From assembly GCA_965215765.1 (NCBI GenBank), contig OZ244118.1:2415801-2479800 (forward strand): a DNA stretch of 64,000 nucleotides, written 5' to 3'. Below, piece after piece: positions 1-17,426 of the stretch (its first letter is position 1; every line of letters starts with the position of its first letter). The notes beneath the pieces were generated by a model that saw only the letters and a program-made list of their open reading frames with translations, had not been told where the DNA came from and made no database searches. This DNA is from an uncultured candidatus Porisulfidus sp. Lineage in GTDB: Bacteria; Pseudomonadota; Gammaproteobacteria; Poriferisulfidales; Oxydemutatoraceae. The translations under genes were made by a program, and so were the position numbers.

Positions 1-905
1 CTGCCCGGGCAACACCGTGGTCGGCGGCCAGCTTAAACCCTGATTGTCCTACTCTCCGGGTCAGGAAACGGCGGTCTGAGCGGGAATCCTGACTTGGGCA
101 CACGCTTCGCGCGCGTGTACGGCAGCAACAGCTATAGCAATTTCTGCAATTGTTCTTGCAGTTCTTCTTTGTGAAGGGTTCCCTAACCCTGATTGTCCCA
201 CTCTCCGAGTCAGGAAACTGCGGTCAGAGCGGAAATAGTCGGGAAACTGAAAAATGCCGCCATTGAAGCCGACTTCAACTGCCCGGGAAACACCGTGATC
301 GGCGGCCAGCTTAAACCCTGATTGTCCCACTCCCCGGGTCAGGAAACGGCGGTCTGAGCAGGAATTCTGACTTGGGCACACGCTTCGCGCGCGTGTACGG
401 CAGCAACAGCTATAGCAATTTCTGCAATTGTTCTTGCAGTTCTTCTTTGTGAAGGGTTCCCTAACCCTGATTGTCCCACTCTCCGGGTCAGGAAACGGCG
501 GTCTGAGCGGGAATCCTGACTTGGGCACACGCTTCGCGCGCGTGTACGGCAGCAACAGCTATAGCAACTTCTGCAATTGTTCTTGCAGTTCTTCTTTGTG
601 AAGGGTTCCCTAACCCTGATTGTCCCACTCTCCGGGTCAGGAAACGGCGGTCTGAGCGGGAATCCTGACTTGGGCACACGCTTCGCGCGCGTGTACGGCA
701 GCAACAGCTATAGCAACTTCTGCAATTGTTCTTGCAGTTCTTCTTTGTGAAGGGTTCCCTAACCCTGATTGTCCCACTCTCCGGGTCAGGAAGTAGCGAC
801 CGGAACAGGAATTCTGACTTGGCACACGCTTCGCGTGCGCGTACGGCAGCAACAGCTATAGCAACTTCTGCAATTGTTCTTGCAGTTCTTCTTTGTGAAG
901 GGTTC
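1..905. repeat. Tandem array, 149-bp unit (full copies starting at 38, 316, 465, 614, 763, plus a 129-bp variant unit at 187-315 whose end matches window bases 1-37). The array runs off the window start. Each full unit carries the last ~52 bp (14 codons plus stop) of the adjacent thioredoxin-like gene.
   Basis: Direct reading: 'ccctgattgtcccactctccgggtcaggaaacggcggtctgagcgggaatcctgacttgggcacacgcttcgcgcgcgtgtacggcagcaacagctatagcaa(c/t)ttctgcaattgttcttgcagttcttctttgtgaagggttccctaa' recurs with period 149. The terminal 'ctatagcaacttctgcaattgttcttgcagttcttctttgtgaagggttccc' is the reverse complement of the codons for ...KGTLHKEELQEQLQKLL* of ORF 856..1440. Confidence 0.9.
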
Positions 906-1440
906 CCTTTTTAATGAAGCGCACAACCTTGTCACGATCAATCAAGGCACTGAATGGCAGCCCGCCTGAGTCGTTGCCGAGTTCTTTGCCTAGTGCAATG
1001 GCGTCACTGAACCCGATGAGCTGGAGATATTTCACCTGCGGCAGGCTGTCAAGGAAGGCTTGGGCTGGTTCAAGTTCATCTATAGCAATTCCCACTACTT
1101 CAAAGCCCTGCTCGTGATACTGGTCACGGAAATCACTGAACACCGGAATCTCACGCAAACACGGGGGGCACCAGGAAGCCCAAAAGTTCAATAAAACCAC
1201 TTTCCCCTCCCAACTTTTGCTGGACACAGTCTCACCGCTGAGGTTTTTCATGGCAAATTCAGGAACTGTTTTGCCAAAATCCACATCTACAACCTGCGTG
1301 TTCGGTTCTTTGTGCTTCCCCTCCGGCAAATCGTACAGCGTTACCCCGGCAATGGTCGCCACGATGGCCAACAGAAGCAAATGAGGAATGAATCTCATTT
1401 TTCCAGGTTCCTTTTCGCTAAACATCTTTTCGTTGGGCAT
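856..1440 (-). CDS. Periplasmic thiol:disulfide oxidoreductase, TlpA/DsbE-like thioredoxin fold (WCPPC active site). Likely true start at the 3rd Met (coordinate 1398, MRFIPHLLLL...), which gives an N-terminal signal/anchor.
   Basis: 194-aa ORF with 'NFWASWCPPCLREIP' thioredoxin CxxC motif and a hydrophobic N-terminus. It lies immediately downstream of dsbD on the same strand. Confidence 0.8.
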   Translation of the reverse strand: MPNEKMFSEKEPGKMRFIPHLLLLAIVATIAGVTLYDLPEGKHKEPNTQVVDVDFGKTVPEFAMKNLSGETVSSKSWEGKVVLLNFWASWCPPCLREIPVFSDFRDQYHEQGFEVVGIAIDELEPAQAFLDSLPQVKYLQLIGFSDAIALGKELGNDSGGLPFSALIDRDKVVRFIKKGTLHKEELQEQLQKLL

Positions 1441-3229
1441 CTAACACAGCCTTGATATGTGAAATAAATTTTGTGGCACCGAGAAAACCCACCAAGCGAT
1501 AGTTTTTCAACTCCCGGCCTTCGGTGTCAAAGAACAAGATCGCAGGTGGACCAAAAAGGTTGAATTTCTTCAATAAATCCTGGTCTTCCTGATTGTTTTC
1601 AGTGACATCCGCTTTGTACAAAACCAGGCTTGACAATGCTTCCTGAACCTGTGGATCGGAGAAAGTAAACGCCTCCATTTCTTTGCAGCTCACACACCAG
1701 TCTGCATAAAAATCCAGCATCAGCACTTGATTGGACTGCCCGGCCTCCTGAACGCGCGCTGCCAGAGCAGTCGTGGATTCTACAGTCTGGAAATCCAGCT
1801 TGTCTTGTTGCTGAAAGGACTGTGAAACCACCAGCGGTCTGAGCAGACTATGTCCGCCCGTCGCGGCTCCGGCAACCAGCAAAGTTCCATAAAGCAACAG
1901 GAGCAGCGAGATGCCGCGACCGAAGCTCAGCCAGCCTTGCGAAGGGGACGTAGCCTTTAAAACCCCATGGACGTAGGTTCCTGCAAAGATCAACAGGCAG
2001 CCGGTGAAAAACAATATCAGGAATGCGGGCAGAACTCTGTCAAGTAACCACAAGGCCACTCCCAGCATCAAGAAACCGAAGCTGGCGCGAGCCATGTCCA
2101 TGAGTGGGCCGGGCTTTGGCAGGAAAGAGCCCAGAGAGGTACCGAACACCAACAGGGGTATGCCCATTCCCATCCCAAGGCTGAAAAGCGCGATGGCTCC
2201 AGTCAGCGCGTCACCGGTTCGGGCAATAAACAGGAGTGCGCCAACCAAGGGTGCGGTGATGCAAGGCCCAACGATCAGTGCCGAGAGCCCCCCCATTACC
2301 GCCGCTCCAGGCAGACTGCCATTCTTGTTTTGACCCGCCAGCAAAGCAAAGCGGGTTTGCAGGCGGGCAGGCATCTGAAGTTCAAACAGACCAAACATCG
2401 ACAGTGCCAGAATGACGAATACCGCAGCGAAACTGAAGATCACCGCAGGCTTCTGGGACCAGATTTGAAAATTCTCGCCCCCCAGCCCGACGATCATTCC
2501 AAAAATGCTGTACACCACGGCCATTGCCAAAACGTAGCTCAGCGAAAGACTGAAAGCCCTTTTTGTGGTTTTGCGTTCGCCGCTCGTGATGATGCCACTC
2601 AGAATGGGCACCATGGGTAAGACACATGGCGTAAAAGCCAGCAATACTCCAAAACCGATGAACGCCAGAACAGTCAACAGGATGCTTTGGCTGACAAGCA
2701 AGTCGGCAACCCGACTTTGTTCCGACTGCGTGGATGACGGTACCGCAGGTGTTTTGTCGGTTCCAGCGGCCAAAGTAAAAAGCTTGTTAATGGGGGGATA
2801 GCAAATTCCCGCGTCAGCACATCCCTGGTAACTAACGGTGATCTCGGCAGTTTTGGCACTGGGGTTTTGCACCTCAAAAGGCACGAGGAGTTCACCTCTG
2901 AAAACGTTCACTTGGCCGAAATACTCATCGGTCAGTGTCTTCCCGGGCGGCAAGCCCATGGTGACCTCGCCCTGCTCGGAAACAATGCTGGTTTTATGGC
3001 GATACAGGTAGTAGCCCTCAGCGATCAGCCAGTCTGCAACAGTCCCCTGCGAGCTTTCCACGATACGCAAAACGAAGGCTTCATCAGGTGGCAGAAATTC
3101 ACTTTGCCCGTCATCCAGACCTTTCAGTTTCTCTAACAGAGAAGTCTCGGCACTGCTGAAGCCGGCAAAGCAGAACAAAAAAGCCAAAGCTGCCGCAACT
3201 TTTTTCACTGTGTCTCGTCCTCTACCCAT
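1418..3229 (-). CDS. dsbD: Thiol:disulfide interchange protein DsbD (N-terminal DsbD-alpha domain, CcdA-like membrane core, C-terminal thioredoxin domain)
   Basis: 603 aa. Signal peptide present. 'CADAGICYPP' alpha-domain Cys pair, 'TPCVLPMVPILSGII' and 'VGPCITAPLVGAL' membrane Cys motifs, C-terminal 'YADWCVSCKEME' thioredoxin CxxC. The cutA-dsbD linkage is classical. Confidence 0.92.
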   Translation of the reverse strand: MGRGRDTVKKVAAALAFLFCFAGFSSAETSLLEKLKGLDDGQSEFLPPDEAFVLRIVESSQGTVADWLIAEGYYLYRHKTSIVSEQGEVTMGLPPGKTLTDEYFGQVNVFRGELLVPFEVQNPSAKTAEITVSYQGCADAGICYPPINKLFTLAAGTDKTPAVPSSTQSEQSRVADLLVSQSILLTVLAFIGFGVLLAFTPCVLPMVPILSGIITSGERKTTKRAFSLSLSYVLAMAVVYSIFGMIVGLGGENFQIWSQKPAVIFSFAAVFVILALSMFGLFELQMPARLQTRFALLAGQNKNGSLPGAAVMGGLSALIVGPCITAPLVGALLFIARTGDALTGAIALFSLGMGMGIPLLVFGTSLGSFLPKPGPLMDMARASFGFLMLGVALWLLDRVLPAFLILFFTGCLLIFAGTYVHGVLKATSPSQGWLSFGRGISLLLLLYGTLLVAGAATGGHSLLRPLVVSQSFQQQDKLDFQTVESTTALAARVQEAGQSNQVLMLDFYADWCVSCKEMEAFTFSDPQVQEALSSLVLYKADVTENNQEDQDLLKKFNLFGPPAILFFDTEGRELKNYRLVGFLGATKFISHIKAVLDAQRKDV

Positions 3230-3531
3230 TCCTGGTACGCCCTTTCAGCCTGTACTTCTGAAAATATAATTTCCGGTAGATCGTATGGATGTCGCTTCTT
3301 GAGCAACTCCACAGTTCGCTGACAACTCTCAGAGGTGGTTTTGACACTGAGAACATACTCATGCTCCTGCTTCAATTCATTTTTCCATTGGTAAAAAGAC
3401 AGCACCCGCCCGGAAATCTGCGCGCATGCTGCAGCGTGTTTCTCCACCAGGAAAGCCGCAACCGACTCCGCATCCTCGCGTTTTGCGAAAGTGGATTTAA
3501 TGACGACCAGTCCCTTACTCATTACCATCTC
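3205..3531 (-). CDS. cutA: Divalent-cation tolerance protein CutA (108 aa). The long ORF-track N-terminal extension is rejected.
   Basis: C-terminal 108 aa 'MVMSKGLVVIKSTFAKREDAESVAAFLVEKHAAACAQISGRVLSFYQWKNELKQEHEYVLSVKTTSESCQRTVELLKKRHPYDLPEIIFSEVQAERAYQEWV' matches the CutA1 family. ATG at 3529-3531 on the minus strand. Position upstream of dsbD is canonical. Confidence 0.85.
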   Translation of the reverse strand, partial: EMVMSKGLVVIKSTFAKREDAESVAAFLVEKHAAACAQISGRVLSFYQWKNELKQEHEYVLSVKTTSESCQRTVELLKKRHPYDLPEIIFSEVQAERAYQEWVEDETQ

Positions 3532-3887
3532 TTGGTCTGAATTGGATTGTACACAACAATTGCCACCCAAACCCTTGCGACCTCTCATGCGAGCCGCCTG
3601 ACAGCCACTTTTCGCGCTCGCATCTCCTGACCCCGAACCCCCTCCCCTGATCCTGAAGAAAGCTTGTGGCACAAAAGAAGCCAGAAACCATTGACTGCTC
3701 CGCGTGAAAATGAGGCTCTGCCCCGCTGCCCAACTCTTCGACCCTGTGAAATGGAAGCAAATCCTGAATAATACCCTCGCTTTTCTCTGTCTCAAGTGAC
3801 GATTTCTGTCCAGTTTTGACAGAGAGCCGCCGGTGATTTTGTCAAAACAAGCCAAGCGCGCGCCACACTCTTCCCAATAAGACCGAC

Positions 3888-3918
3888 TTGCCACATAAGC
3901 CCTTGCCTTTGCTACAAT
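3888..3918 (+). promoter_or_regulatory. Candidate sigma70-type promoter for fxsA: TTGCCA-(19 nt)-TACAAT
   Basis: Hexamers read directly at 3888-3893 and 3913-3918, about 25 nt upstream of a GAGGG RBS and the GTG start at 3943. The spacer is longer than optimal. Confidence 0.3.
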
Positions 3919-3942
3919 GCCCAAAGTTAGAGGGAATGGATT

Positions 3943-4377
3943 GTGACTTTTCTGTTAATGATGGTGGTTCTGCCGCTTGTTGAGATTTATCTCTTCATCA
4001 TAGTCGGCGGCGCAATCGGTGCACTGACCACGGTACTGTGGTGCGTATTCAGTGCTTTCGCAGGTTTTTACGCCTTGCGTCATCACGGGCGGCAATCTGT
4101 CGCTCGCTATCGTGCCTCTATTGCTGAAGGAAGTAGCCCCACATACGATATTTTAAGCAGCATGCTGATTCATGTGGGCGGTGTGCTTTTGCTGGTTCCG
4201 GGGTTCATGACCGACGCTGCCGGCCTTTTATGCTTGCTCCGACTGAGCAGGGAGTTTATCATCCGGCTCGCTGTGAAGCGTGCTTCCGTTTCTGTAAACG
4301 GTTTTGGCTTTGGGGTTTCTCGCAAAAAAAGCAGGCGCAAAGAATTTCTCGAGGGAGAATACCGGCGGCGCGATTAA
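3943..4377 (+). CDS. fxsA: FxsA family cytoplasmic membrane protein (GTG start)
   Basis: 144 aa with two N-terminal TM helices, the conserved 'LLLVPGFMTDAAGLLCLL' FxsA motif, and a basic/acidic tail 'FLEGEYRRRD'. Confidence 0.8.
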   Translation: MTFLLMMVVLPLVEIYLFIIVGGAIGALTTVLWCVFSAFAGFYALRHHGRQSVARYRASIAEGSSPTYDILSSMLIHVGGVLLLVPGFMTDAAGLLCLLRLSREFIIRLAVKRASVSVNGFGFGVSRKKSRRKEFLEGEYRRRD

Positions 4378-4424
4378 GCACAGTTTCCCGATTCAACTCC
4401 GGGGCTTTGGGAATTTAAATTTAA

Positions 4425-5558
4425 TTGAGATCAGTGATGAGAATAGGCATCTCCAATGAAGCGCATGGTGATGAGCGACGTGTTGCGCTTGTACCGAGTA
4501 TCGTAGAAAAATTAAAGAAGGCAAAAGCGGAAGTTTTTGTCCCCGCTGGTGCAGGAGAAGCAGCACACTACCGTGACGACGCATACCTGAAGGCCGGTGC
4601 GACCGTTGTCGAAAAGACAGAAGAACTGGATGTTTTGTTTCGCATTTGCCCGCTTGCGGCAACAGAAGTTTCAGAACTGAAAAAGGGCAGCACCCTGATT
4701 GGCTTTTTGAACCCCATGGGGGATCGGGAAGTCATAGAGGCACTGTGCGAACGAGACATTAACAGCTTCTCTTTTGAATTGATGCCGCGCTCCACGAGAG
4801 CACAGTCCATGGATGCCTTGTCATCCCAGCGCTCAATAGCTGGTTACCGGGCGGTTCTGGAGGGAGCGAACTTACTCAGCAAGTTTTTGCCAATGCTGAC
4901 CACGCCAGCCGGGACTGTAAGACCGGCTCTGGTTTTGATCATCGGTGTGGGTGTTGCCGGCTTGCAAGCCATCGCAACGGCCAGACGCCTCGGAGCCATA
5001 GTAGAGGCTCAGGACGTACGCCCCGAGTCCCGGGAACAGGTTGAATCCCTGGGCGCAAAATTTATTTCCCCTGGATTGGAAGCGGGTGGCAGCGGCGGAT
5101 ACGCGCGGGAACTCACAGCTGAAGAAAAAGCAAAGCAGGGAGAGCTCCTTGCCAAGCATATTGCCAAAGCAGATATCGTGATTACGACCGCGGCGATTCC
5201 CAATCGCGTATCGCCAGTCATCGTGCGGGCTTCCGTAGTGGAAATGATGCGTGCAGGCTCGGTAATCGTCGACGGGGCGGCTGAAGGCGGCGGCAACTGT
5301 GAACTCAGCCAGCCTGGAAAAACCATCAGCCACAACGACGTGACCATTCACGCACCATTGAATCTGCCATCCCGAACCGCCACGCACGCGAGTGACATGC
5401 TGGCAAGGAATTTTTATAACCTGGCGCAATTGTTTATCGCTGAAGGTGAAATATCTTTTGACTGGGAAGACGACATTCTGGCCGGTTCCTGCATAACGCG
5501 TGACGGCAAAGTCTTGAATCCGCAGGTTCGCGAGTTCATGGAGGGAGAAAGCAAATGA
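4425..5558 (+). CDS. pntAA: NAD(P) transhydrogenase subunit alpha part 1 (dI, NAD(H)-binding; alanine dehydrogenase/PNT-like)
   Basis: 377 aa. Rossmann motif 'LIIGVGVAGLQAIATARRLGA'. ATGA overlap with the next gene. Split three-gene pnt organisation. Confidence 0.9.
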   Translation: MRSVMRIGISNEAHGDERRVALVPSIVEKLKKAKAEVFVPAGAGEAAHYRDDAYLKAGATVVEKTEELDVLFRICPLAATEVSELKKGSTLIGFLNPMGDREVIEALCERDINSFSFELMPRSTRAQSMDALSSQRSIAGYRAVLEGANLLSKFLPMLTTPAGTVRPALVLIIGVGVAGLQAIATARRLGAIVEAQDVRPESREQVESLGAKFISPGLEAGGSGGYARELTAEEKAKQGELLAKHIAKADIVITTAAIPNRVSPVIVRASVVEMMRAGSVIVDGAAEGGGNCELSQPGKTISHNDVTIHAPLNLPSRTATHASDMLARNFYNLAQLFIAEGEISFDWEDDILAGSCITRDGKVLNPQVREFMEGESK

Positions 5559-5872
5559 TTGAAGACTGGGCTGCCATACAGGGTCTTGCCGCATTGTATA
5601 TTTTTCTTTTGGCGGCCTTTACTGGTTACGAAGTCATAAACCGGGTTCCGGCGATTCTGCATACGCCGTTGATGTCCGGTTCGAATTTTGTCCACGGCAT
5701 CGTTCTGGTGGGAGCCATGGTTGCTTTGGGGCAGGCTGATTCAGATAGCACAGGTCAGCTTGTGATTGGATTTCTGGGTGTGGTTCTGGCGGCAGGAAAC
5801 GCAGTCGGCGGATACGTTGTCACCGAAAGGATGTTGCAAATGTTCAGTCGAACCAAAGCAAAAAAGCGATAA
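5555..5872 (+). CDS. pntAB: NAD(P) transhydrogenase subunit alpha part 2 (membrane dII segment)
   Basis: 105-aa hydrophobic protein between pntAA and pntB. Start overlaps the pntAA stop. Confidence 0.85.
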   Translation: MIEDWAAIQGLAALYIFLLAAFTGYEVINRVPAILHTPLMSGSNFVHGIVLVGAMVALGQADSDSTGQLVIGFLGVVLAAGNAVGGYVVTERMLQMFSRTKAKKR

Positions 5873-5902
5873 CGCAAACATCAAATTTAAGGAAATAATT
5901 TC

Positions 5903-7306: not shown

Positions 7307-7340
7307 ACTGACCGATACTCCCGACTAAAAGCCAGTCTCT

Positions 7341-7877
7341 ATGAAACTCCTTCTCCTTGACCGTGACGGGGTCATCAACGAAGACGTTGGATATGTGAAA
7401 TCGGCATCTGAATGGCATGCACTACCTGGCAGTCTTGAAGCGATAGCACGCCTTAGCCAGAACGGCTGGTTTGTAACATTGGTATCCAACCAATCTGCCT
7501 TGGGCAGGAAAATCCTTTCTTTGGACAATCTGGCAGAAATCCAGGGAAAATTGCAAGCAGAGTCAGCTGCAACGGGAGCAGCCATAGCCGGACTGTCCTT
7601 TTGTCCCCACCTGCCAGACGCCGGTTGCGAGTGCCGCAAACCAGCCCCCGGGATGCTTCTGAACATTGCCAAAAGGCTGGATGTCAACCTGGCAGAAGTC
7701 CCATTCATTGGTGACAAGCTAAGCGACATACTTGCTGCCAAAGCTGCAGGGGCGCGCCCTATGCTGGTTTTGACAGGGCAGGGAAAGGAGGATGTAAAGA
7801 ACCCCGGCTTCCCAAGTGATGTCCCTGTTTACCAGGATTTGGCAGAAGCCACGGACCAACTGTTATCCGCTCACTAG
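7341..7877 (+). CDS. gmhB: D-glycero-beta-D-manno-heptose-1,7-bisphosphate 7-phosphatase (HAD-IIIA, histidinol-phosphatase-like)
   Basis: 178 aa. 'LLLDRDGVIN' HAD motif I, 'CxHxxxxxCxCRKP' Zn-binding motif ('CPHLPDAGCECRKPAPGM'), 'IGDKLSDILAAKAAGA' motif III. Confidence 0.85.
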   Translation: MKLLLLDRDGVINEDVGYVKSASEWHALPGSLEAIARLSQNGWFVTLVSNQSALGRKILSLDNLAEIQGKLQAESAATGAAIAGLSFCPHLPDAGCECRKPAPGMLLNIAKRLDVNLAEVPFIGDKLSDILAAKAAGARPMLVLTGQGKEDVKNPGFPSDVPVYQDLAEATDQLLSAH

Positions 7878-8930
7878 ACCCGTTTCCAGGATCCAAAAAC
7901 GTAGCCTGGCTCAGCAATTGCGTGCTGCGCGCTGTACCCGAAGACGCGTATCAAGCTATGTGTTTTTTGCGGGTACCCTGGCCGGACGAAATCTGGCAGA
8001 AATCCAGGGAAAATTGCAAGCAGAGTCAGCCGCAACGGGAGCAGCCATAGCCGGACTGTCCTTTTGTCCCCACCTGCCAGACGCCGGTTGCGAGTGCCGC
8101 AAACCAGCCCCCGGGATGCTTCTGAACATTGCCAAAAGGCTGGATATCGACCTGGCAGAAGTCCCATTCATTGGTGACAAGCTAAGCGACATACTTGCTG
8201 CCAAAGCTGCAGGGGCGCGCCCTATGCTGGTTTTGACAGGACAGGGAAAGGAGGATGTAAAGAACCCCGGCTTCCCAAGTGATGTCCCTGTTTACCAGGA
8301 TTTGGCAGAAGCCGCGGACCAACTGTTATCCGCTCACTAGACCCGTTTCCAGGATCCAAAAAACGTAGCCTGGCTCAGCAATTGCGTGCTGCGCGCTGTA
8401 CCCGAAGACGCGTATCAAGCTATGTGTTTTTTGCGGGTACCCTGGCCGGACGAAATCTGGCAGAAATCCAGGGAAAACTGCAAGCAGAGTCAGCCGCAAC
8501 GGGAGCAGCCATAGCCGGACTGTCCTTTTGCCCTCACCTTCCAGACGCCGGTTGCGAGTGCCGCAAACCAGCCCCCGGGATGCTTCTGAACATTGCCAAA
8601 AGGCTGGATATTGACCTGGCAGAAGTCCCATTCATTGGTGACAAGCTAAGCGACATACTTGCTGCCAAAGCTGCAGGGGCGCGCCCCATGCTGGTTTTGA
8701 CAGGACAGGGAAAGGAGAATGTAAAGAACCCCGGCTTCCCAAGTGATGTCCCTGTTTACCAGGATTTGGCAGAAGCCGCAGTCCAACTGTTATCCGCTCA
8801 CTAGACCCGTTTCCAGGATCCAAAAAACGTAGCCTGGCTCAGCAATTGCGTATCGCATGCTGTACCCGGAAACGCATATCAAGCTATGCGTTTTTGCGGG
8901 TACCCTGGTCGGAAGAAATCTGACAGGCGG
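7531..8930 (+). repeat. Tandem triplication, about 462-bp unit (copies 7531-7993, 7994-8454, 8455-8915, then about 15 bp of a fourth). Each copy carries the 3' 115 codons of gmhB plus about 120 bp of downstream sequence.
   Basis: Near-identical blocks read directly. ORFs 7816..8340 and 8382..8804 are read-through frames that re-enter the duplicated GmhB C-terminal frame ('...AEIQGKLQAESAATGAAIAGLSFCPHLPDAGCECRKP...LLSAH'). Confidence 0.9.
8870..8895 (+). terminator. Candidate intrinsic terminator: 9-bp stem aaacgcata / tatgcgttt, 6-nt loop, followed by a T-run
   Basis: Read directly in the last (most distal) repeat copy. The corresponding hairpin is imperfect in copies 1-3. Confidence 0.35.
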
Positions 8931-9300
8931 GAGTATCGGCGCAAGTTATGCCGGAGCTCGGTGTCAGGAGCAGTTCGGGCGGGTGGTCTGGTCGCAGACA
9001 ACCAAGGCTAGGTGACTGACAGTTACACAACAACTTCTGTGACCGGGAAAGGTCTGGTCGCGGGTCTTGTGGCAAACAATCAGGGTGCCGTCAGCTGTAG
9101 GGGCGCGGTAGGGTCAGTGTCCGGAGCCGGACAGCCCGGAAGTTTTGCCGGCAGCAGTCCGAGTCCGGGAGGCATTGCCGACAGCTACGCGTAGGTTGCC
9201 TCGCGTCAATGGTGGCAGTGTGCCTTTTGTGGAAGATGACGTCGGGCAGGCATCAGACTTTCTGCCGAGTCTCGTGCCTGACGGCACCCGGTTGACTACC
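8925..9300 (+). pseudogene. Decayed fragment (about 370 bp, multiple stops) of a giant GLUG-repeat gene. Plus-strand orientation, fused to the end of the gmhB repeat array.
   Basis: Translation 'VTGKGLVAGLVANNQGAVS.RGAVGSVSGAGQPGSFAGSSPSPGGIADSYA*' aligns to the 'FVTGEGLVAGLVADNQGTVSRSYAAGSVSGAGQPGSFAGSSSGGIADSYAAALPR..' segment of the paralogs at 24.4-64 kb. The downstream portion is degenerate. Confidence 0.75.
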
Positions 9301-9310
9301 TGTTGACGGG

Positions 9311-9814: not shown

Positions 9815-9883
9815 TCTCGCTTAATTGTCAGGTTGCTGATTGAGCAAAACAATAGGGTTCTATTGTACCACTGACTCGCCTGT

Positions 9884-10921: not shown

Positions 10922-11110
10922 TTTAGCTCCTCCCTGTCAGTTAATCCAAACAAGCTATATGCTATACCATCTGTCCATGGTATCTCAATTTGAGACTGCC
11001 AAACGAACAAAACTGGCGAAGCACTCGTGTGATTCGCAACAAAATACCAAGATGAACGCACAAGGTGCAACGAGGCGGGTCGGCTTCGAACCGCGGCTTT
11101 CCCGGCTTTT

Positions 11111-13015
11111 ATGTGGGGTGCGATTGACATCGCAAAAATCTTCAGGGACGTGAAATTCTTGGCTGGTACTCTTACTTTTCTTGCTTCCCGGTTCTTGCCT
11201 TTTCGTTCCTGGTACCGGGAACTCGGTGAGCCTGGTGTAATGCGGGCAGACGTGGTGGCCGGCATCACGGTTGCCATGCTGCTGATTCCGCAAGCGATGG
11301 CGTACGCGCAATTGGCTGGCCTGCCTGTTTACGTGGGTCTGTATGCCGCTTTTTTTCCGGTCATGGCGAGTGGGCTGATGGGGTCACTGCGACAGCTGGC
11401 AACTGGTCCGACAGCAATTGGCTCCTTGCTGACTTTGTCTGTCATTGGCCCTCTGTCCGGAGGCGATCCCATACTTTTTCTGACTTTGGCAACCATCCTC
11501 GCCATCATGGTCGGAACCATTCAGATCACATTAGGCATGTTGAGCATGGGGCGGCTGGTGGTATTTCTTTCACACCCGGTTTTGCTGGGGTTCACCAATG
11601 CTGCTGCGATTACGATCGTCTCTTCCCAGATTGGCAATATTTTCGGCGTTGAGAAGACGACTGCGGATGCGAGTTATCAAGTGCTGGGGAACACCTTGAT
11701 GGCGATTACCGAGGGTTTCAGCACTCCCACTTTGCTCATGGCCTCCGCCGCTTTGCTGGTTATTCTGTTTTTGCAAAAGTACCTGCCAAAAGTACCTGCT
11801 GTGCTGGTGGCGGTCTTGCTGACCGGGCTGGCTTCCTGGCTCTTTGAATACGAAAAGGGCAGTGGTGGCGCAGTCGTTGGCCACGTGCCAATGGGGTTGC
11901 CATCTTTACAGGTTCCGGACATTAACCTCTCTGCCCTGTCCGCCATGCTGACCATGTCTTTTGTAATCGTGCTGACCGGCTTCACTGAAGCCATTTCCAT
12001 TTCCAAAATAGCGGTGGCGCGTACCCGACAAAAAATGAACGTAGACCAACTCTTGATCGGACAGGGATCGGCCAACGTGGTCTCGGGTCTGTTCCAGGGA
12101 TATCCTGTTTCCGGTTCTTTTTCCCGTACCGCCTTAAACCTGACTACCGGAGCGCGTACTGGCTTCTCCTCAATCGTAACTGCGTCGGTAGTTGGCTTGG
12201 TACTGGCTTTCCTGACTTCGAGTCTGTACCACTTGCCGCAAGCCACTTTGGCAGTCGTGATTATGATCTCTGTCGGCAGCCTCGTTAATATCCGCCCGTT
12301 CCTTGCTGTCTGGCGTGTGCAAAAACTTGAGGGAGTCATCGCTTTGATCACTTTCGCCACTACGATCTTTTCGGCACCACACATACAGTACGGGATCGTC
12401 ACAGGAGTTCTCTTGTCGCTATGCTTGCAAATTTACCGCGCCATGCAGCCAAAAACGGTGGTGGTCTCACGCAACCCGGATGGCTTTCTGGCTGACGCCA
12501 GCCAAAGTCTGTTGCAACTTTGTCCAAAAATTTCGCTGCTACGTTTTAACGCTCCCCTGCATTTTGCCAACACGGAATACTTCGAAAGAAAAGTGCTGGA
12601 ACGGGTGGCGGCGGCACCCGAATTACGGGTCATGATCATTGATGCGGTCGCAATGAATGACGTGGACTCCACAGGAGCGGAAATGTTGCGCAGGCTGGTT
12701 GACACCTTGCACGTGTCAGGAATTGAATTTTTGGTCGTCAGGCCACAACCGCGCTTGCAAAAGATTCTGCAACGTTCGGGGTTGACAGATCATGGGCTCA
12801 GGCATCCTCTTTTCCGAACCCGCGAGGCCGCGCTGAAGCATGCCTGGCAATTCCTGAAAACGGATGACAAAAAATGCCCTCTGAAGAGTTGCAAGGCGCA
12901 AGACTTCAGTGCTTGTATTTTGCAAAAGAAAGTGCCGCCGAAGCCGTCTCCTGAACAAGAACCAGACGACCAGGGGAATCACCGGAAAGAAAAGAAAAGC
13001 CTTGCAGCTCAGTAG
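11111..13015 (+). CDS. SulP-family anion (sulfate/bicarbonate) permease with C-terminal STAS domain
   Basis: 634 aa. 'DVVAGITVAMLLIPQAMAYAQLAGLP' SulP signature, multi-TM core, C-terminal STAS-like region 'ELRVMIIDAVAMNDVDSTGAEMLRRL'. Confidence 0.85.
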   Translation: MWGAIDIAKIFRDVKFLAGTLTFLASRFLPFRSWYRELGEPGVMRADVVAGITVAMLLIPQAMAYAQLAGLPVYVGLYAAFFPVMASGLMGSLRQLATGPTAIGSLLTLSVIGPLSGGDPILFLTLATILAIMVGTIQITLGMLSMGRLVVFLSHPVLLGFTNAAAITIVSSQIGNIFGVEKTTADASYQVLGNTLMAITEGFSTPTLLMASAALLVILFLQKYLPKVPAVLVAVLLTGLASWLFEYEKGSGGAVVGHVPMGLPSLQVPDINLSALSAMLTMSFVIVLTGFTEAISISKIAVARTRQKMNVDQLLIGQGSANVVSGLFQGYPVSGSFSRTALNLTTGARTGFSSIVTASVVGLVLAFLTSSLYHLPQATLAVVIMISVGSLVNIRPFLAVWRVQKLEGVIALITFATTIFSAPHIQYGIVTGVLLSLCLQIYRAMQPKTVVVSRNPDGFLADASQSLLQLCPKISLLRFNAPLHFANTEYFERKVLERVAAAPELRVMIIDAVAMNDVDSTGAEMLRRLVDTLHVSGIEFLVVRPQPRLQKILQRSGLTDHGLRHPLFRTREAALKHAWQFLKTDDKKCPLKSCKAQDFSACILQKKVPPKPSPEQEPDDQGNHRKEKKSLAAQ

Positions 13016-13017
13016 CC

Positions 13018-13752
13018 TCACACGCGCTGGAACTGCAAGTGACAGGTCGCCCTTCCCTTCTTGAGAGCTTTCGCTTCAAAACGGGTACTGACCCACCAGT
13101 GCGGCGGGCGGCAAAAACCATCCTTGCTTTGAGACAGGTTTCGCAAATGCGCACTGCTGTGCAAGACGCCAAGCATGTAGTCGGCGTAGTCTCGTTCATC
13201 AGTCACCAGGTACAGCAGGGCACCCTTTCCAAGCACCTGTTCCAGCAGAGGCAGTAAATCCGGACTGACCAGACGGCGTTTGTGGTGGCGGCGTTTAGGC
13301 CAAGGATCGGGAAACAGGATCAGCATCCTCGCGCAACTTCCCGCCGGAAGTAATTCCGCGAACACTCTCCTCGTGTCTCCGTGGAATATTTTCAGGTTCT
13401 TTAAGCCCAGCTCTTCAGCCCTCATCATGAGCCGGGCGATGCCGGAGCGAAAGACTTCAACCCCCAAAAAATTTTCATCCGGATTATTTTGCGCCAGAGA
13501 TACCAAGGTTTCGCCGTTGCCAAAACCTGCTTCGACCGTGAGAGGGGTATCTGCGGCGAGCCAGCTATTCGCGAGCAAAGAGGAGGTTTCCGGTAGCTGG
13601 TAGTTCTTCCAGTGTTTGTCCCAGGCTTTTTTCTGGGCATTTTTGAAGTGTCTGCCACGGAGCACGAAGCTGGGCAAGTAGCGATATCTGTCAGGGGTTT
13701 GATTGACCTGTTTGCGCCGCAGAATCGCGGCTGACATTTTCGCGGTCGGCAA
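13018..13752 (-). CDS. trmB: tRNA (guanine46-N7)-methyltransferase
   Basis: 244 aa. 'VEAGFGNGE' SAM motif and 'LFPDPWPKRRHHKRRLV' TrmB signature. Confidence 0.88.
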   Translation of the reverse strand: MPTAKMSAAILRRKQVNQTPDRYRYLPSFVLRGRHFKNAQKKAWDKHWKNYQLPETSSLLANSWLAADTPLTVEAGFGNGETLVSLAQNNPDENFLGVEVFRSGIARLMMRAEELGLKNLKIFHGDTRRVFAELLPAGSCARMLILFPDPWPKRRHHKRRLVSPDLLPLLEQVLGKGALLYLVTDERDYADYMLGVLHSSAHLRNLSQSKDGFCRPPHWWVSTRFEAKALKKGRATCHLQFQRV

Positions 13753-13779
13753 TGCTGTGGTTTTTGGCAGACGAAGCGC

Positions 13780-14586
13780 TCAGTCGAGCAGTCCTGTTTC
13801 AGGCGAAGAACTGCTGGCAAAGCGACGCTTTGTCATGCGTCCGGCCAGGTAGGCAGCACGTCCTGCCTGTACTGCCAGATTCATGGCATGTGCCATAGTT
13901 ACAGGTTTCCTGGCCATCGCGATTGCGGTGTTCATCAACACGCCGTCGCAGCCAAGTTCCATCGCAATGGCAGCGTCCGAAGCAGTTCCAACTCCGGCAT
14001 CCACAATTACCGGCACCCGCGCGTTCTCTACAATGCTGCGAATATTGCCCGGATTGCGGATACCCTGCCCTGAGCCTATCGGTGCGGCCAAGGGCATCAC
14101 AGCCGCGCAGCCGATTTCTTCAAATCGTGTCGCCATAACGGGATCGTCGTTGGTGTACACCATCACCTTGAAGTCTTTCCGGATCAGCAGTTCTGCTGCT
14201 TCCAGCGTCTGTATGACATCCGGAAACAAGGTTTTTTGATCAGCGAGCACCTCCAGCTTGACAAAAGAATGTCCGAGCAATTCACGCGCGAGCAAGCACA
14301 CACGAACTGCGCTTTCTGCCGTGTAGCAGCCAGCCGTGTTCGGAAGAATGAACCAGCGATCCGGGCCCAGTGTTGACAACAGATCCGGTTCTTTTGTGGC
14401 ATGTTCCAAATTCATTCGGCGCAAGGCGACGGTCACAATCTCGGCTCCGGAAGCCAGCACTGCCGCTTTGCTTTCTTCCAGATCCCGGTATTTTCCGGTT
14501 CCAACCAAAAGACGCGAAGTGAACGATTTATCGGCAATAAGCAGTTTTTCAGTCATCGGCAATTCCCGCTGTTTTCCATGTCTCAT
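13780..14586 (-). CDS. thiG: Thiazole synthase ThiG. Alternative, likelier start [12 protein letters not shown] at 14556.
   Basis: '[19 protein letters not shown]' and '...[14 protein letters not shown]' ThiG family signatures. Immediately downstream of thiS. Confidence 0.9.
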
Positions 14587-15329
14587 CCCCGTTAACCGCC
14601 ACCAATAGCCCGAACAATTTCAACCGCATCGCCATCTTCGAGAATACATTGATCGTATTCATCGCACGGTACAATCTTGCGGTTCACTCTTCCAGATCCC
14701 GGTATTTTCCGGTTCCAGCCAAAAGGCGCGAAGTGAACGATTTGTCGGCAATAAGCAGTTTTTCAGTCATCGGCAATTCCCGCTGTTTTCCATGTCTCAT
14801 CCCCGCTAACCGCCGCCAATAGCCCGAACAATTTCAACCGCATCGCCATCTTTGAGAATGCATTGATCGTATTCATCGCACGGTACAATCTCGCGGTTCA
14901 CTCTTCCAGATCCCGGTATTTTCCGGTTCCAGCCAAAAGACGCGAAGTGAACGATTTATCGGCAATAAGCAGTTTTTCAGTCATCGGCAATTCCCGCTGT
15001 TTTCCATGTCTCATCCCCGCTAACCGCCACCAATAGCCCGAACAATTTCAACCGCATCGCCATCTTCGAGAATGCATTGATCGTATTCATCGCACGGCAC
15101 AATCTCGCGGTTCACTCTTCCAGATCCCGGTATTTTCCGGTTCCAGCCAAAAGGCGTGAAGCAAACGATTTGTCGGCAATAAGCAGTTTTTCAGCCATCG
15201 GCAATTCCCGCTGTTTTCCATGTCTCATCCCCGCTAACCGCCACCAATAGCCCGAACAATTTCAACCGAATCGCCATCTTCGAGAATGCATTGATCGTAT
15301 TCATCGCACGGCACAATCTCGCGGTTCAC
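14474..15329 (-). repeat. Four tandem 214-bp units. Each spans the thiS 3' end (last ~35 codons incl. ...VRAIGGG*), the 20-bp intergenic spacer and the thiG 5' end (first ~33 codons). The outermost copies are the genuine gene ends.
   Basis: Marker 'tcatcggcaattcccgctgttttccatgtctcatcccc' recurs at 14553, 14767, 14981 and 15195. Homology begins at 14474 inside thiG and ends at 15329 inside thiS. Confidence 0.9.
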
Positions 15330-15434
15330 TTCGGCGGCAAATAATTGCCCGTCAAGATCCAGCTTGCCAAGTAATCCCCCGAGGGTCAGCCCTTGGGGAT
15401 ATTCGTTCTGATGCCCGTTTAACTTGAGATTCAT
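15234..15434 (-). CDS. thiS: Sulfur-carrier protein ThiS (66 aa, C-terminal GG)
   Basis: 'MNLKLNGHQNEYPQGLTLGGLLGKLDL...[14 protein letters not shown]' with the typical ThiS length and GlyGly terminus. The longer ORF-track frame is rejected. Confidence 0.85.
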   Translation of the reverse strand: MNLKLNGHQNEYPQGLTLGGLLGKLDLDGQLFAAEVNREIVPCDEYDQCILEDGDSVEIVRAIGGG

Positions 15435-15674
15435 GATCCTTTCTGCCTGGCCAAAGTCAGCGTTTATGACCTTCCTCGCTATACTACCCGAAGTCTTTGT
15501 CAGGCCTTTGTGCAGTCGTGGCTCCTGCCTGAGAAAAACTACTTCTGTGCCGAAAAAAGAACCTGTTCGCTCCGCATGATTCGACCCGATGACTTTTACA
15601 AGCTCGAACAAAAACTTCTTATGGCCAAGGCTGTCAGCGACCTTTCATCTTGCTTTCTGCCACGGTGATTTTCC

Positions 15675-16739
15675 GTGAGCTTTGAAATGCCCCACCGTTG
15701 TCTGGTTGTAGGCGGCGGCGTACTGGGTCTGTTTACGGCTCTCAAGCTTCGCAAGCTGGGCTGGCAAGTGACTTTGCTGGAGAAACAAAGCCTGGGAGCC
15801 GGGGCGAGCTCGGCTGCAGGCGGGATCCTGAGCCCGCTGTACCCTTGGCGGCAAAGCCGGAAAATAAATTGCCTGTTCAGCCAGTCTCTGTACGCATACC
15901 AGAGATTCTTTCGGGAAACAGCGGCATTGGGGATGAGAGTGGCTTATTCCCAACCGGGCTTGTTTTGCCTGGATGTTGAAGAGCACCCCATGGCGCGCAA
16001 GTGGGTCGCATCCCGACACCTTTCCCTGGAAACATGGCCTCGCCGGCGACTGCGTGCCGTCTTTCCGCGCTTGCGCGCTGGCAGTGGCTTTTTTCTGCCG
16101 GATGTTTGCCAAGTAGATCCGGTCAATTTAATTGCCAGGCTGACGCAACTGGCGACTCATCATGGGGTTCGTATTCGTGAAAATATGTCAGTCCGAAAAT
16201 TGCTGCTGCGCAACCGTATGGTTGGCGGCGTGATTTGCGAGCGAGAAGAAATTCGCGGTGATGCCGTCGTGATTTGCGCTGGCGCATGGTCTAAAGAGCT
16301 GATTCCCACAGCACAAAAATGGTGCCCGGTACGCCCCGTAAAAGGACAAATCATCGAGTACCGTACAAAACCGGGACTATTGCCACATATCGTGTTGCAC
16401 CGTGGAAAGTATTTAATTCCCAAACCGGACGGACGGATTCTTGCCGGCAGCACTTTGGAAAATTCCGGCTTTGACACCACACCGACATCCGCCGCTCGCG
16501 TCGAACTGGACAGCTTTGCCAGGAGCGTTCTTCCAGGACTTTCCATATACAAAATATCTGATCAGTGGGCAGGGTTGCGCCCCGGACTCGCCACGCCCTT
16601 CGTGGGGGCACATCCCGATATTAAAGGCCTTTTTCTCAATACCGGACACCACCGCAATGGAATCGTGCTGGCATCCGGCTCAGCAGACTGGATTGCTGCG
16701 GCGTTTGCACGGCTAATCCTCAGAAACAACCCGGCTTGA
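15675..16739 (+). CDS. thiO: Glycine oxidase ThiO (FAD-dependent)
   Basis: 354 aa. 'CLVVGGGVLGLFTALKL' FAD-binding motif. Divergent from thiS-thiG, as in many beta/gamma-proteobacterial thi loci. Confidence 0.8.
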   Translation: MSFEMPHRCLVVGGGVLGLFTALKLRKLGWQVTLLEKQSLGAGASSAAGGILSPLYPWRQSRKINCLFSQSLYAYQRFFRETAALGMRVAYSQPGLFCLDVEEHPMARKWVASRHLSLETWPRRRLRAVFPRLRAGSGFFLPDVCQVDPVNLIARLTQLATHHGVRIRENMSVRKLLLRNRMVGGVICEREEIRGDAVVICAGAWSKELIPTAQKWCPVRPVKGQIIEYRTKPGLLPHIVLHRGKYLIPKPDGRILAGSTLENSGFDTTPTSAARVELDSFARSVLPGLSIYKISDQWAGLRPGLATPFVGAHPDIKGLFLNTGHHRNGIVLASGSADWIAAAFARLILRNNPA

Positions 16740-17426
16740 ACTTTTTGCCTGCTACGCCACGGCTCGGAGCCAGCTCGGAGCCATCCCGGAGTCGTTCCGG
16801 TGAAGCGCGCTGCCTGTCGCAACATCCGGCTCAGCAGACTGGATTGCTGCGGCGTTTGCACGAGGCTAATCCTCAGAAGCAACCCGGCTTGAGCTTTTTG
16901 CCTGCTGTATACCGGCTTCGGAGCCATCTTGGAGCCGTTCCGGTGAAACGCGCTGCCTGTCGCAACATCCGGCTCAGCAGACTGGATTGCTGCGGCGTTT
17001 GCACGGCTAATCCTCAGAAGCAACCCGGCTTGAGCTTTTTGCCTGCTGCGCCACGGCTCGGAGCCATCTTGGAGCCGTTCCGGTGAAACGCGCTGCCTGT
17101 CGCAACATCCGGCTCAGCAGACTGGATTGCTGCGGCACTTGCACGGCTAATCCCCAGAAGCAACCCGGCTTGAGCTTTTTGCCTGCTGCGCCACGGCTCG
17201 GAACCAGCTCGGAGCCATCTCGGAGCCAGCTCGGAGCCAGCTCGGAGTCGTTCCGGTGAAACGCGCTGCCTGTCGCAGCATCTGGCTCAGCAGACTGGGT
17301 TGCTGCGGCGTTTGCGCGGCTAATCCTCAGAAGCAACCCTGCTTGAGCTTTTTGCCTGCTGCGCCACGGCTCGGAGCCATCTCGGAGTCGTTCCGGTGAA
17401 GCGCGCTGCCTGTCGCAACATCTGGC
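16672..17426. repeat. Tandem array of about 140-150-bp units (about 5 copies, one 181 bp with internal gagccagctcg sub-repeats). Each repeats the last ~22 codons and stop of thiO. The array fills the whole gap between convergent thiO and the ATPase gene.
   Basis: 'catccggctcagcagactggattgctgcggcgtttgcacggctaatcctcagaagcaacccggcttga' recurs at 16672 (genuine), 16823, 16966, 17106 and about 17287, with a truncated copy at about 17418. Confidence 0.88.

Follow-up and report, generated by a model that had tools for sequence, protein, structure and literature searches.

Strain-variable tandem arrays of gene-end segments in a lineage of sponge-associated Gammaproteobacteria

Four tandem arrays in 17.4 kb and further arrays at the giant genes

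The left part of the window, by which the whole 64-kb stretch of analysed DNA is meant, raises the question of how several unrelated head-to-tail repeats came to lie at the ends and junctions of housekeeping genes, and whether they exist in the cells at all. A preliminary description of positions 1-17426 had claimed four tandem arrays of 140-460-bp gene-end or junction segments, and their presence was confirmed with Tandem Repeats Finder and a repeat search of the window (Table 1). The units have lengths of 149 bp (at least five copies), 464 bp (three), 214 bp (four) and about 150 bp (five). They abut without spacers between them, and the gene fragments that they contain are 8 to 351 nt long; no unit includes a complete gene. 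As had been noticed before, an intact gene is found at one edge or both edges of every array, identified by open reading frames and NCBIfam models. This rule is automatic, because it follows whenever the two breakpoints of a tandem duplication are not both inside the same gene.

Array A has 4.0 copies of the 149-bp unit with 96% matches at 314-908, and two further copies at 36-236 that belong to a second-order repeat. Its unit is composed of 52-53 nt of the tlpA 3′ end, an 88-nt spacer and the final 8 nt of a convergent gene (hyp150), and the adjacent units at 463 and 612 are identical to each other. This second-order repeat of 278 bp, with 1-278 matching 279-556, extends past the left edge of the window. 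The translation of the hyp150 fragment at 229-321, AEIVGKLKNAAIEADFNCPGNTVIGGQLKP*, matches the C-terminus of L001:3057-3509, and the synteny of the tlpA locus is kept in both sister species used here (L001 and L002). In array B the final 351 nt of gmhB and 113 nt downstream are repeated, bounded by the direct repeat AATCTG[G/A]CAG. Array C spans an operon junction, the unit comprising the final 101 nt of thiS and the first 113 nt of thiG, for which gene callers favour a start at 14556 (258 aa). The unit of array D reaches from the final 68 nt of thiO through the spacer as far as the stop codon of a convergent pilB-like gene; every unit contains the 11-bp microsatellite GCTCGGAGCCA in variable number, and the boundaries, CATC[C/T]GGCTCAGC, are identical at 12 of 13 positions. 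The thiO product scored 236.6 bits with TIGR02352, which is under the curated cut-off of 250.8, yet this was the best match by far. The pilB-like product ends with FGKES* in the window versus FGKETWS* in L002.

Table 1. Positions of the arrays and their edge genes in the window
Feature	Coordinates	Strand	Remarks
Array A	1-908		149-bp units at 36-184, 314-462, 463-611, 612-760, 761-908; partial unit 185-236
hyp150 3′-end fragment copy	229-321	+	convergent neighbour is a 150-aa hypothetical protein; fragment within 278-bp second-order repeat
tlpA, TlpA/ResA-like thiol:disulfide oxidoreductase (thioredoxin-fold)	856-1440	-	intact; right edge of array A; NCBIfam
gmhB, D,D-heptose 1,7-bisphosphate phosphatase	7341-7877	+	intact; left edge of array B; NF006506, 193 bits (cut-off 178)
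Array B	7527-8926		three 463/464-bp units + 10 nt; 464 bp x 3.0, 97% matches
thiG	13780-14586	-	intact; open reading frame; first 113 nt within array C; Pfam ThiG in called genes of L161-L164
Array C	14474-15330		214 bp x 4.0, 96% matches
thiS	15234-15434	-	intact; right edge of array C; TIGR01683, 66.9 bits
thiO	15675-16739	+	intact; left edge of array D; TIGR02352, E=4e-70
Array D	16672-17431		five units, 140-173 bp
PilB/GspE-like ATPase	17427-18626	-	intact; right edge of array D; NCBIfam
Unamplified leader unit, giant gene 1	34691-35076		one 377-bp copy; 34691-35201 matches 46952-47462 (95%)
Leader array, giant gene 2	45445-47337		377-bp units x 5
Array immediately 3′ of giant gene 3 stop codon	47806-48349		181-bp units x 2.8
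Paralogous leader array, giant gene 3	58451-60720		377-bp units x 6
Paralogous array 3′ of giant gene 4	61188-61901		181/159-bp units, about 4 copies

The arrays that had been described at the leaders and 3′ ends of giant genes were found as well. The 377-bp leader unit consists of 157 nt upstream of giant gene 2 and the first 220 nt of the gene itself. Paralogous junctions have one, five and six units, and the single unit at giant gene 1 can be taken as an internal control for the unamplified, ancestral condition. L162 and L163 have 2.4-2.7 of the 181/159-bp units 3′ of giant gene 1, a site at which the window lacks them. For the repeats within the giant genes, Tandem Repeats Finder gave only unit lengths that are multiples of 3 (78, 162, 168, 246 and 333), and 12 of 14 array unit lengths are not divisible by 3. 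Altogether eight large-unit tandem arrays lie at non-coding or junction DNA of the window. Extra copies account for 12% of positions 1-23754, and the coding density is 90% after the arrays have been collapsed.

The same scan was applied to 158 loci from other bacteria (2.04 Mb), and only one array with a unit of at least 100 bp and at least 2.5 copies was detected. The expectation for 17.4 kb is thus 0.009 arrays, and four were observed (P=2e-10, or 1e-7 with a conservative background rate), so that the density is indeed far above normal, as had been suspected. With a looser cut-off (at least 100 bp, at least 1.9 copies) the background contained five arrays.

When the 14 units were compared all against all, no match at E<=0.01 was obtained between different loci, in agreement with the earlier view that the units are unrelated and that no mobile element has spread. 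A dispersed family of the MIRU type was therefore rejected. A mobile or integrative element and a CRISPR were rejected as well: the spacer-less units are copies of local sequence that is single-copy in L001, L002 and L165, and the neighbours are housekeeping genes.

Copy numbers in conspecific strains and in sister species

Copy-number polymorphism between strains had been proposed as a check, and it is present at all four arrays. The conspecific set consisted of seven contigs from ENA sample ERZ25071281 with 98.3-99.2% identity to the window in unique DNA, and about 45 kb of this species were sampled outside the giant genes. The related contigs were reached through a ThiO homologue with the members of its cluster and then through a short PntAB protein; a metagenome scan with GmhB gave no match above 54% identity. 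Array A has one, three or at least five copies, with one unit in L165 (5207-5355) and three plus a displaced one in L168. Array B has 3.0-4.5 copies when the window is included and 3.4 to 4.5 in the other strains. For array C three, three, four and five copies were counted in conspecific strains and four in the window, and for array D about 7, 11, 12 and 12 versus five. In the 20 kb sampled to the left of the window, two strains differ in the copy number of a 238-bp array (6.3 versus 11.3), and a single strain, L170, has a 253-bp triplication, the corresponding region of L169 being unduplicated (one copy versus three). The units within an array have diverged by 3-15%, and the arrays are common to several strains. 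The differences between units are mostly transitions and not indels (12:1, 22:3, 13:1, 36:9 and 40:12), and unit variants are common to strains, yet at different positions of the array.

The arrays are real and dynamic and not assembly artefacts, because the same arrays with other copy numbers occur in the seven strain contigs and because the differences between units are dominated by transitions. An assembler could in principle have made copies that are absent from the cells, or could have collapsed or expanded strain variation; the window and the related contigs are all metagenome assemblies, and the strain contigs share a single sample and probably a single assembler. However, the seven contigs were assembled separately and their unique flanks differ by 1-3%, the shared variants lie at different array positions, the differences are point changes, and the arrays are 0.6-2.7 kb long, far below a typical long-read length. 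About 20 loci from long-read MAG chromosomes (OZ/OY/OX accessions) also contained no array with a unit of at least 100 bp and at least 2.5 copies. Their isolates are named in the same way as those of L001 and L002. Judging by the accessions, they presumably share project and pipeline, and the other bacteria among them are mostly Poribacteria. An artefact is thus extremely improbable.

The two sister species, with about 90% (L001) and about 80% (L002) identity to the window, were sampled over about 41 kb each. At all four array sites both have a single copy; at the site of array B, L001 has one unit and a partial copy that was displaced by its own duplication of about 8 kb. The junction of nadC and fba is likewise single-copy in both species. 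Duplications were instead found elsewhere. L002 has two copies each of a 607-bp and a 311-bp segment, 2.1 copies of a 100-bp unit and three of a 510-bp unit, and L001 has an 11-copy array with units of about 106 bp in addition to the large duplication. The arrays are young and lineage-specific. As the sister species duplicate at other sites and two more arrays exist to the left of the window, the propensity is lineage-wide in Ca. Oxydemutatoraceae, and in this respect the proposed propensity extends beyond the four loci in the DNA sampled; the dedicated terminator-anchored mechanism that had been linked to it gained no support, as shown in the following section.

Junctions, breakpoints and the preference for gene ends

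The homology at the duplication junctions ranges from 0 to 13 nt. It amounts to 0 nt for array A, 3 nt for its second-order repeat and 1 nt for array C; 9 of 10 nt are identical for array B and 12 of 13 for array D. For the 607-bp duplication of L002 the value is 8 of 9, and for the 253-bp triplication of L170 it is 1 nt. Both the window and L001 have kept the right-hand ATCA[A/G]CAGG site of the 607-bp duplication, and therefore the junction homology of this event can be seen to pre-date the duplication. For the L170 event the unduplicated L169 allowed the corresponding comparison. For array B, L001 is rearranged 3′ of gmhB, and for array D the L002 sequence is too diverged for a comparison with the ancestral junction. 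As far as sequence can tell, the junctions point to a homology-poor duplication that would have been followed by slippage or unequal exchange.

Breakpoints occur at depths of 1 to about 570 nt within genes, at 3′ ends and also at 5′ ends (thiG, tlpA in L002, the giant-gene leader, and umuC and egtD in L172). No motif common to the breakpoints was found in the comparison of units and junction contexts. Terminator-like sites are not enriched in the units (31 found, 23 +/- 5 expected from shuffled controls in a consensus scan), and the six units that were folded are not palindromic and were ordinary in their secondary structure (z between -0.9 and +1.0 versus shuffled sequence). The suggestion that duplication is anchored at terminators was thus not upheld. 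Repeats of a structured RNA or of terminators were rejected on the same grounds, and also because the window has no Rfam match at the gathering threshold and no tRNA. The probability that none of the four units falls within a single gene is 0.008, and this avoidance of gene interiors is what purifying selection alone would leave. In addition, arrays are present at four of six convergent 3′-3′ junctions and at three of 40 other junctions (Fisher p=0.003), an excess that may reflect selection or a hot spot, such as a bias linked to termination zones. The youngest events, which are confined to one strain or one species, lie at co-directional or divergent junctions, and the old high-copy arrays are mostly convergent.

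The explanation that we prefer, with a probability of about 0.6, is that the arrays are genuine, minisatellite-like and variable in copy number, that they result from short tandem duplication, the net rate of which is unusually high in one sponge-associated gammaproteobacterial lineage (Ca. Oxydemutatoraceae), and that they have been filtered by selection, the extra units being by-products and not a functional device. Either a raised duplication rate or a lowered deletion rate could be behind them. Judging from the junction sequences, a segment of 100-600 bp would at first be duplicated in tandem in a homology-poor event by template switching, slippage or end joining. Once at least two copies exist, slippage or unequal sister-strand exchange would add or remove units, at times several, as the copy numbers of the strains suggest. 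Selection would purge duplications with both breakpoints in one gene. The survivors would span a gene end or junction and leave an intact gene at the edge, because interior duplications would be lost and 90% of the genome is coding. Arrays would persist and grow best between convergent genes, where nothing is disturbed.

The excess at convergent junctions goes beyond what a filter for intact genes alone would give. To explain it, either a mechanistic bias or additional selection, directed against polar or promoter effects, is needed. Such a bias would exist if duplications arose preferentially where transcription units end or converge, so that the anchoring were partly mutational, an explanation close to that of the preliminary description. 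It could be caused by stalled forks or template switching in termination zones, or by illegitimate recombination by topoisomerase or gyrase at positive supercoils. Apart from the excess itself, a hot spot is favoured by the very short spacers of the two array-free convergent junctions (3 and 30 bp), by three breakpoints 1-8 nt from a stop codon, which is more than naively expected and also speaks against the selection-based explanation, and by several junctions with 0-1 nt homology, as template switching or end joining would give. However, terminators and structure are ordinary, a common breakpoint motif is missing, the breakpoints reach deep into genes and include 5′ ends, the youngest events lie away from convergent junctions, and the identical excess would be expected from selection against polar or promoter effects. 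A hot spot at gene termini is thus rather unlikely, and clearly less probable than duplication followed by selection.

It is tempting to ask whether the units could be used by the cell, as silent cassettes that vary gene ends, as regulatory spacers, as sources of peptides or RNAs, or whether they are remnants of dosage amplification. The variant GmhB residues DVNL/EATD and DIDL/EAAD swap between functional and extra copies among strains, and an 80-aa open reading frame with a signal-peptide region is kept in each 377-bp leader unit. In a codon-position test of neutrality on the extra gmhB units, the coding part is about three times less variable than the non-coding part, although the units are not independent samples; this reduced variation runs against the by-product explanation. 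Because of it, the gmhB units do not seem to be simply drifting, and exchange with the functional copy is proposed as an explanation. On the other hand, selection for dosage is inapplicable to gene fragments and was rejected, the genes concerned encode housekeeping enzymes (gmhB, thiS/G/O, nadC and ruvX) for which variation of the ends has no evident use, most unit lengths are not multiples of 3, known RNA families were not found in the window, and the sister species live without the arrays, as one conspecific strain does without array A. A function for the arrays is accordingly improbable, more so than a hot spot, and the by-product explanation is retained.

Relation to known repeats and significance

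The MIRU-VNTR of mycobacteria are reportedly intergenic, often within operons, with ends that overlap the flanking stop and start codons, and strain-variable. Their units of 46-101 bp belong to one dispersed related family with about 40 loci. The present arrays are alike in being tandem repeats that overlap gene ends and vary in copy number among strains, but their units are 100-600 bp long, unrelated between loci and each copied from its own gene boundary. The REP/BIME elements of Enterobacteria are palindromes of about 35 bp that form one dispersed family and have known protein partners; like the arrays, they favour convergent gene pairs and sites 3′ of stop codons, whereas the units described here are locus-specific, not palindromic and include coding sequence. 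Short-junction tandem duplications and amplifications have reportedly been studied in Salmonella, E. coli and Pseudomonas. Laboratory duplications usually comprise kilobases to hundreds of kilobases and include whole genes; it is dosage for which they are selected, and they disappear within generations. They are similar in that a first event at 0 to about 13 nt of homology is followed by recombination or slippage between copies; in contrast, the units here are smaller than a gene, and the arrays have lasted to 3-15% divergence and sharing between strains. The junction classes of such duplications are summarised in bioRxiv 10.64898/2026.05.22.727201.

By kind, the arrays belong with the variable tandem repeats of Ehrlichia ruminantium, as they affect many loci, vary between strains, have unrelated units and lie outside functional coding sequence. 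The units of E. ruminantium are reportedly roughly 150 bp and more in size. That species is a member of the Rickettsiales, whereas the present DNA stems from sponge Gammaproteobacteria with a G+C content of 52-57%; the units here are demonstrably gene-end or junction segments, with the single-copy state kept in sister species and one conspecific strain. As far as the variable tandem repeats of the heartwater agent are summarised in PMC10710844, E. ruminantium is alike in being host-associated and in having a small genome, many unrelated non-coding tandem repeat loci, copy-number change between strains and inflated intergenic DNA.

For practical work, the arrays are high-resolution markers for the typing of sponge-symbiont strains, and they will break short-read assemblies. 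Spurious fragment genes named 'Hydrolase_like' or 'RuvX' have already been called in array units. Among bacterial mutations, tandem duplications are regarded as the most frequent and the least stable, and hardly ever do they last until they can be seen in a genome. The present lineage has retained them, and for each locus the single-copy state, young states with two or three copies and old states with 5-12 copies are available in sister species and co-occurring strains. Therefore, formation (from junction homology), the frequency of unit gain and loss, and selection on location can be read from natural populations.

The chromosome of a conspecific is 3.0 Mb long according to cluster tables, versus 1.9-2.0 Mb in the sister species. 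It may be speculated, with considerable reserve, that the lineage has a heritable hyper-duplication phenotype because a function in replication or repair was lost or altered, or else that gene termini are preferred by a process linked to transcription termination or convergence that makes short tandem duplications; in both cases the genome would be growing actively. Single-strand exonucleases, helicases of the RecQ/UvrD type or the recombination machinery could be the functions concerned. If this is true, the lineage would be a natural system in which to watch how bacterial minisatellites are born, grow and decay, and possibly how new gene ends are born.

Tandem arrays at gene boundaries and their density

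The window was analyzed with Tandem Repeats Finder, and an in-register comparison of the units added detail. Both confirmed the four unrelated arrays in 17 kb that had been reported in a preliminary description. Every unit of the arrays A to D represents a gene-boundary segment. The array A unit comprises the 3′-terminal 52-53 nt of tlpA, then an 88-nt spacer and the 3′-terminal 8 nt of a convergent gene (150 aa); that of array B the 3′-terminal 351 nt of gmhB and 113 nt 3′ of the gene; that of array C the last 101 nt of thiS and the first 113 nt of thiG; and that of array D the last 68 nt of thiO and a spacer reaching the stop codon of a convergent pilB-like gene. Array C places an insert of 430-860 bp between thiS and thiG. 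Two extra units of array A lie within a second-order 278-bp repeat, which continues past the left edge of the window. The unit lengths of array D range from 140 to 173 bp because each unit contains an 11-bp microsatellite, GCTCGGAGCCA, in differing count (also in L161 10985-12935, a conspecific strain), pointing to slippage at two scales. The boundary of array D falls within the final codons of the pilB-like gene and appears to have rewritten the encoded C-terminus, which reads FGKES* in the window (17427-17445) versus FGKETWS* in the sister species locus L002 (about 17960).

Positions of the arrays, their flanking genes and the giant genes in the window
Feature	Position	Strand	Remarks
Array A	314-908		149 bp x 4.0, Tandem Repeats Finder
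Array A, extra units	36-236		2 units, in-register view
Array B	7527-8926		464 bp x 3.0, Tandem Repeats Finder
Array C	14474-15330		214 bp x 4.0, Tandem Repeats Finder
Array D	16773-17387		units 140/173 bp, Tandem Repeats Finder
Array D, in register	16672-17431		5 units
TlpA/ResA-like thioredoxin-fold protein	856-1440	-	NCBIfam
DsbD			flanking gene, NCBIfam
GmhB	7341-7877	+	NCBIfam
ThiG	13780-14586	-	NCBIfam
ThiS	15234-15434	-	NCBIfam
ThiO	15675-16739	+	NCBIfam
PilB/GspE-like ATPase	17427-18626	-	NCBIfam
Giant gene 1	24414-34910	-	3498 aa, open
Giant gene 2	35407-38106 + 37979-45664	-	two overlapping ORFs
Giant gene 3	48422-52405 + 52125-58670	-	two overlapping ORFs
Giant gene 4		-	continues beyond window

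As a background, 158 loci of other bacteria (2.04 Mb of DNA around gmhB homologues from genomes and metagenomes) were searched with the same settings. They contained one array with a unit of at least 100 bp at ≥2.5 copies, and five at ≥1.9 copies. In the first 17.4 kb of the window four arrays were observed versus 0.009 expected (P=2e-10; P=1e-7 with a conservative background rate), so that the density is indeed far above that typical for bacteria, as had been claimed. About 20 background loci, which stem from long-read MAG chromosomes with the accession and naming style of the closest relatives, were devoid of such arrays, which argues against a pipeline artefact.

Four more arrays adjoin the giant genes. 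Units of 377 bp, each including the 220 nt at the 5′ end of the giant gene, are present in 5 and 6 copies, and units of 181 bp lie directly 3′ of giant-gene stop codons. The three paralogous giant-gene junctions within the window have 1, 5 and 6 leader units. The giant GLUG/Fn3-repeat genes themselves form a tandem of four (24414-64000, minus strand), 91-92% identical and recurring about every 13 kb; the overlapping ORFs suggest that genes 2 and 3 are split by frameshifts. Each leader unit contains an 80-aa ORF, the N-terminus of the giant protein with a hydrophobic signal-like segment (45445-47337; 58451-60720), and therefore the leader arrays could encode several small secreted peptides.

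Variation among strains and relatives

Conspecific strains were reached via a ThiO homologue 98% identical to that of the window, and then via the members of its cluster (ENA sample ERZ25071281). Copies were counted in seven contigs with 98.3-99.2% identity to the window in unique DNA; L170 was left out, its DNA being wholly left of the window. The copy-number polymorphism among strains that had been put forward as a check was found at all four arrays, and particular unit variants were common to several strains at differing array positions. Together, these results ruled out that the arrays are assembly artefacts. The species is represented in the sample (L161-L170) by at least four to five strain haplotypes at 6-21x coverage, and the strain contigs often stop in or beside arrays (e.g., in array B for L164 and L165, immediately to its right for L163). 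Between units, transitions predominated (12:1, 22:3, 13:1, 36:9 and 40:12), and two neighboring units of array A were identical, showing that old and very recent copies coexist.

Copy numbers and junction homologies of the duplications
Duplication	Window	Strains	Sister species	Junction homology
Array A	≥5.35	1 (L165); 3 + one displaced (L168)	1	0 nt
278-bp second-order repeat of array A				3 nt
Array B	3.0	3.4, ≥3, ≥4.5, 4.5	1	AATCTG[G/A]CAG, 9/10
Array C	4	4, 3, 3, 5	1	1 nt
Array D	5	about 12, 12, 11, 7	1 (L002)	CATC[C/T]GGCTCAGC, 12/13
L002 607-bp duplication				ATCA[A/G]CAGG, 8/9; right-hand site kept in unduplicated relatives
L170 253-bp triplication				1 nt; exact unduplicated counterpart in L169

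Among genomes, two circular chromosomes bearing the label Candidatus Oxydemutatoraceae, a family placed in the Chromatiales, come closest to the window, namely OZ243039.1 (1.92 Mb, about 90% nucleotide identity, loci L001 and L171) and OZ250161.1 (2.00 Mb, about 80% identity, loci L002 and L172). The named species of this family lives in symbiosis with the sponge Stylissa (PMC11685487). Both L001 and L002 show synteny with the window and are single-copy at the array sites (for array D this was seen in L002, as the L001 locus stops short). Both sister species have a plain spacer of 212-228 bp at nadC|fba, the site of an array in the window's species. Arrays A to D are young and lineage-specific. 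A 2,997,607-bp contig in NCBI/ENA lists ThiO (P0122) and PstB (P0247) of the cluster of the window's species; if it is the source chromosome, it exceeds those of the sister species by about 1 Mb.

About 20 kb left of the window were surveyed in strain contigs. The convergent nadC|fba junction has a 238-bp array with 6.3 copies in L169 and 11.3 copies in L170, the ruvX 3′ end carries a 253-bp triplication in L170 only, and L168 contains a 108-bp array as well as a duplicated stretch of about 2.5 kb. The ruvX triplication (L170 4701-5460; single in L169 5144-5397) has its breakpoint 1 nt away from the stop codon; in L170, the intact ruvX is lengthened by a 4-aa tail (153 versus 149 aa), and gene callers give three "RuvX" genes. 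This region (L169 1-19256) also encodes a XoxF-type PQQ dehydrogenase, pstCAB, gshB, an ogt-like methyltransferase, ergothioneine-type genes (Methyltransf_33, GATase, DinB_2/FGE-sulfatase) and a umuDC pair (error-prone polymerase V). Duplications in the L002 genome comprise 607 bp x 2 spanning the dsbD 3′/tlpA 5′ junction, 510 bp x 3 spanning umuD/umuC, 311 bp x 2 at the 5′ end of egtD and, between akr and sulP, 100 bp x 2.1. The L001 genome carries an array with 11 copies of about 106 bp as well as a segmental duplication spanning about 8 kb. The latter (L001 10366-18724) was followed by a partial deletion (order A-B-A'-C-B'), leaving a second sulP of 92% identity and, adjoining the 106-bp array, a displaced 3′ fragment of gmhB. 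The duplications of the three species are independent, each at different places. As stated in the preliminary description, the array units are mutually unrelated, no sequence likeness between loci being found among 14 units. The genome-wide propensity postulated there is supported as far as sampled, by the arrays left of the window and the separate duplications in both sister species.

Drift in the extra gmhB units is not free: variability is about threefold lower in the coding part than in the 113-nt non-coding part. ORFs borne on the units correspond to 136-aa GmhB fragments. The functional first unit reads DVNL...EATD in the window versus DIDL...EAAD in other strains, and both variants occur in extra units (L161, L164, L165, L167). 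The low coding variability and the swapped residues suggest that the extra units exchange sequence with the selected functional first copy.

Formation and retention of the duplications

No long repeats flank the duplications at the junctions inspected, which argues that the first step would be a homology-poor event, i.e., template switching, slippage or end joining, following published junction classes. Higher-order periods (278 bp in array A; 317, 437 and 470 bp in array D; 1412 bp in the 238-bp array) and identical neighboring units point to units having later been added or removed, singly or several at once, probably by slippage or unequal exchange.

The genuine gene had been described as one edge of each array, and intact copies are indeed found at the edges; however, this is automatic for any tandem duplication without both breakpoints in one gene. 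A random segment of the observed lengths falls inside a single gene with a probability of 0.50-0.77 (collapsed map, 90% coding), and the chance that all four units avoid gene interiors is 0.008. This avoidance is explained by purifying selection, which is supported by the unit lengths: 12 of 14 are not multiples of 3, while all repeats inside the giant genes are. There was no sign of a device anchored at terminators: breakpoints lie 1 to about 570 nt within genes, at 5′ as well as 3′ ends, and the units showed no terminator enrichment, no unusual secondary structure and no known RNA. The dedicated mechanism that had also been proposed was left unsupported and is only partly excluded.

In about 45 kb sampled in the window's species, arrays occupy four of six convergent junctions versus 3 of 40 others (p=0.003), and the spacers at the two array-free convergent junctions measure 3 and 30 bp. 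This excess goes beyond a simple filter that keeps genes intact. It would be produced by a mutational hot spot in termination zones, a reading that fits three breakpoints within 1-8 nt of a stop codon; however, the youngest, strain-private events are located at co-directional or divergent junctions, and a hot spot seems rather unlikely. Selection can account for the excess, since neither operons nor promoters are disrupted when DNA is inserted between convergent genes, and the location of the youngest events fits duplications that arise anywhere and persist at convergent ends.

Comparison with known systems

The closest precedent for the arrays is Ehrlichia ruminantium. Every tested feature of its repeats was found here, the extent of the arrays being known from the sampled DNA rather than genome-wide. 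MIRU-VNTRs are one dispersed family positioned between genes; the arrays share this position, but are not one dispersed family (14 unrelated units). Laboratory short-junction duplications follow the same formation logic, but, unlike the arrays, carry whole genes and are short-lived. An identity as mobile element, CRISPR, dosage amplification or structured-RNA repeat was rejected, the defining feature being absent in each case. The arrays are thus a real and well-documented case of known genome plasticity in a new lineage, and they offer an unusually clean comparative series, with the same loci in single-copy, young and old states.
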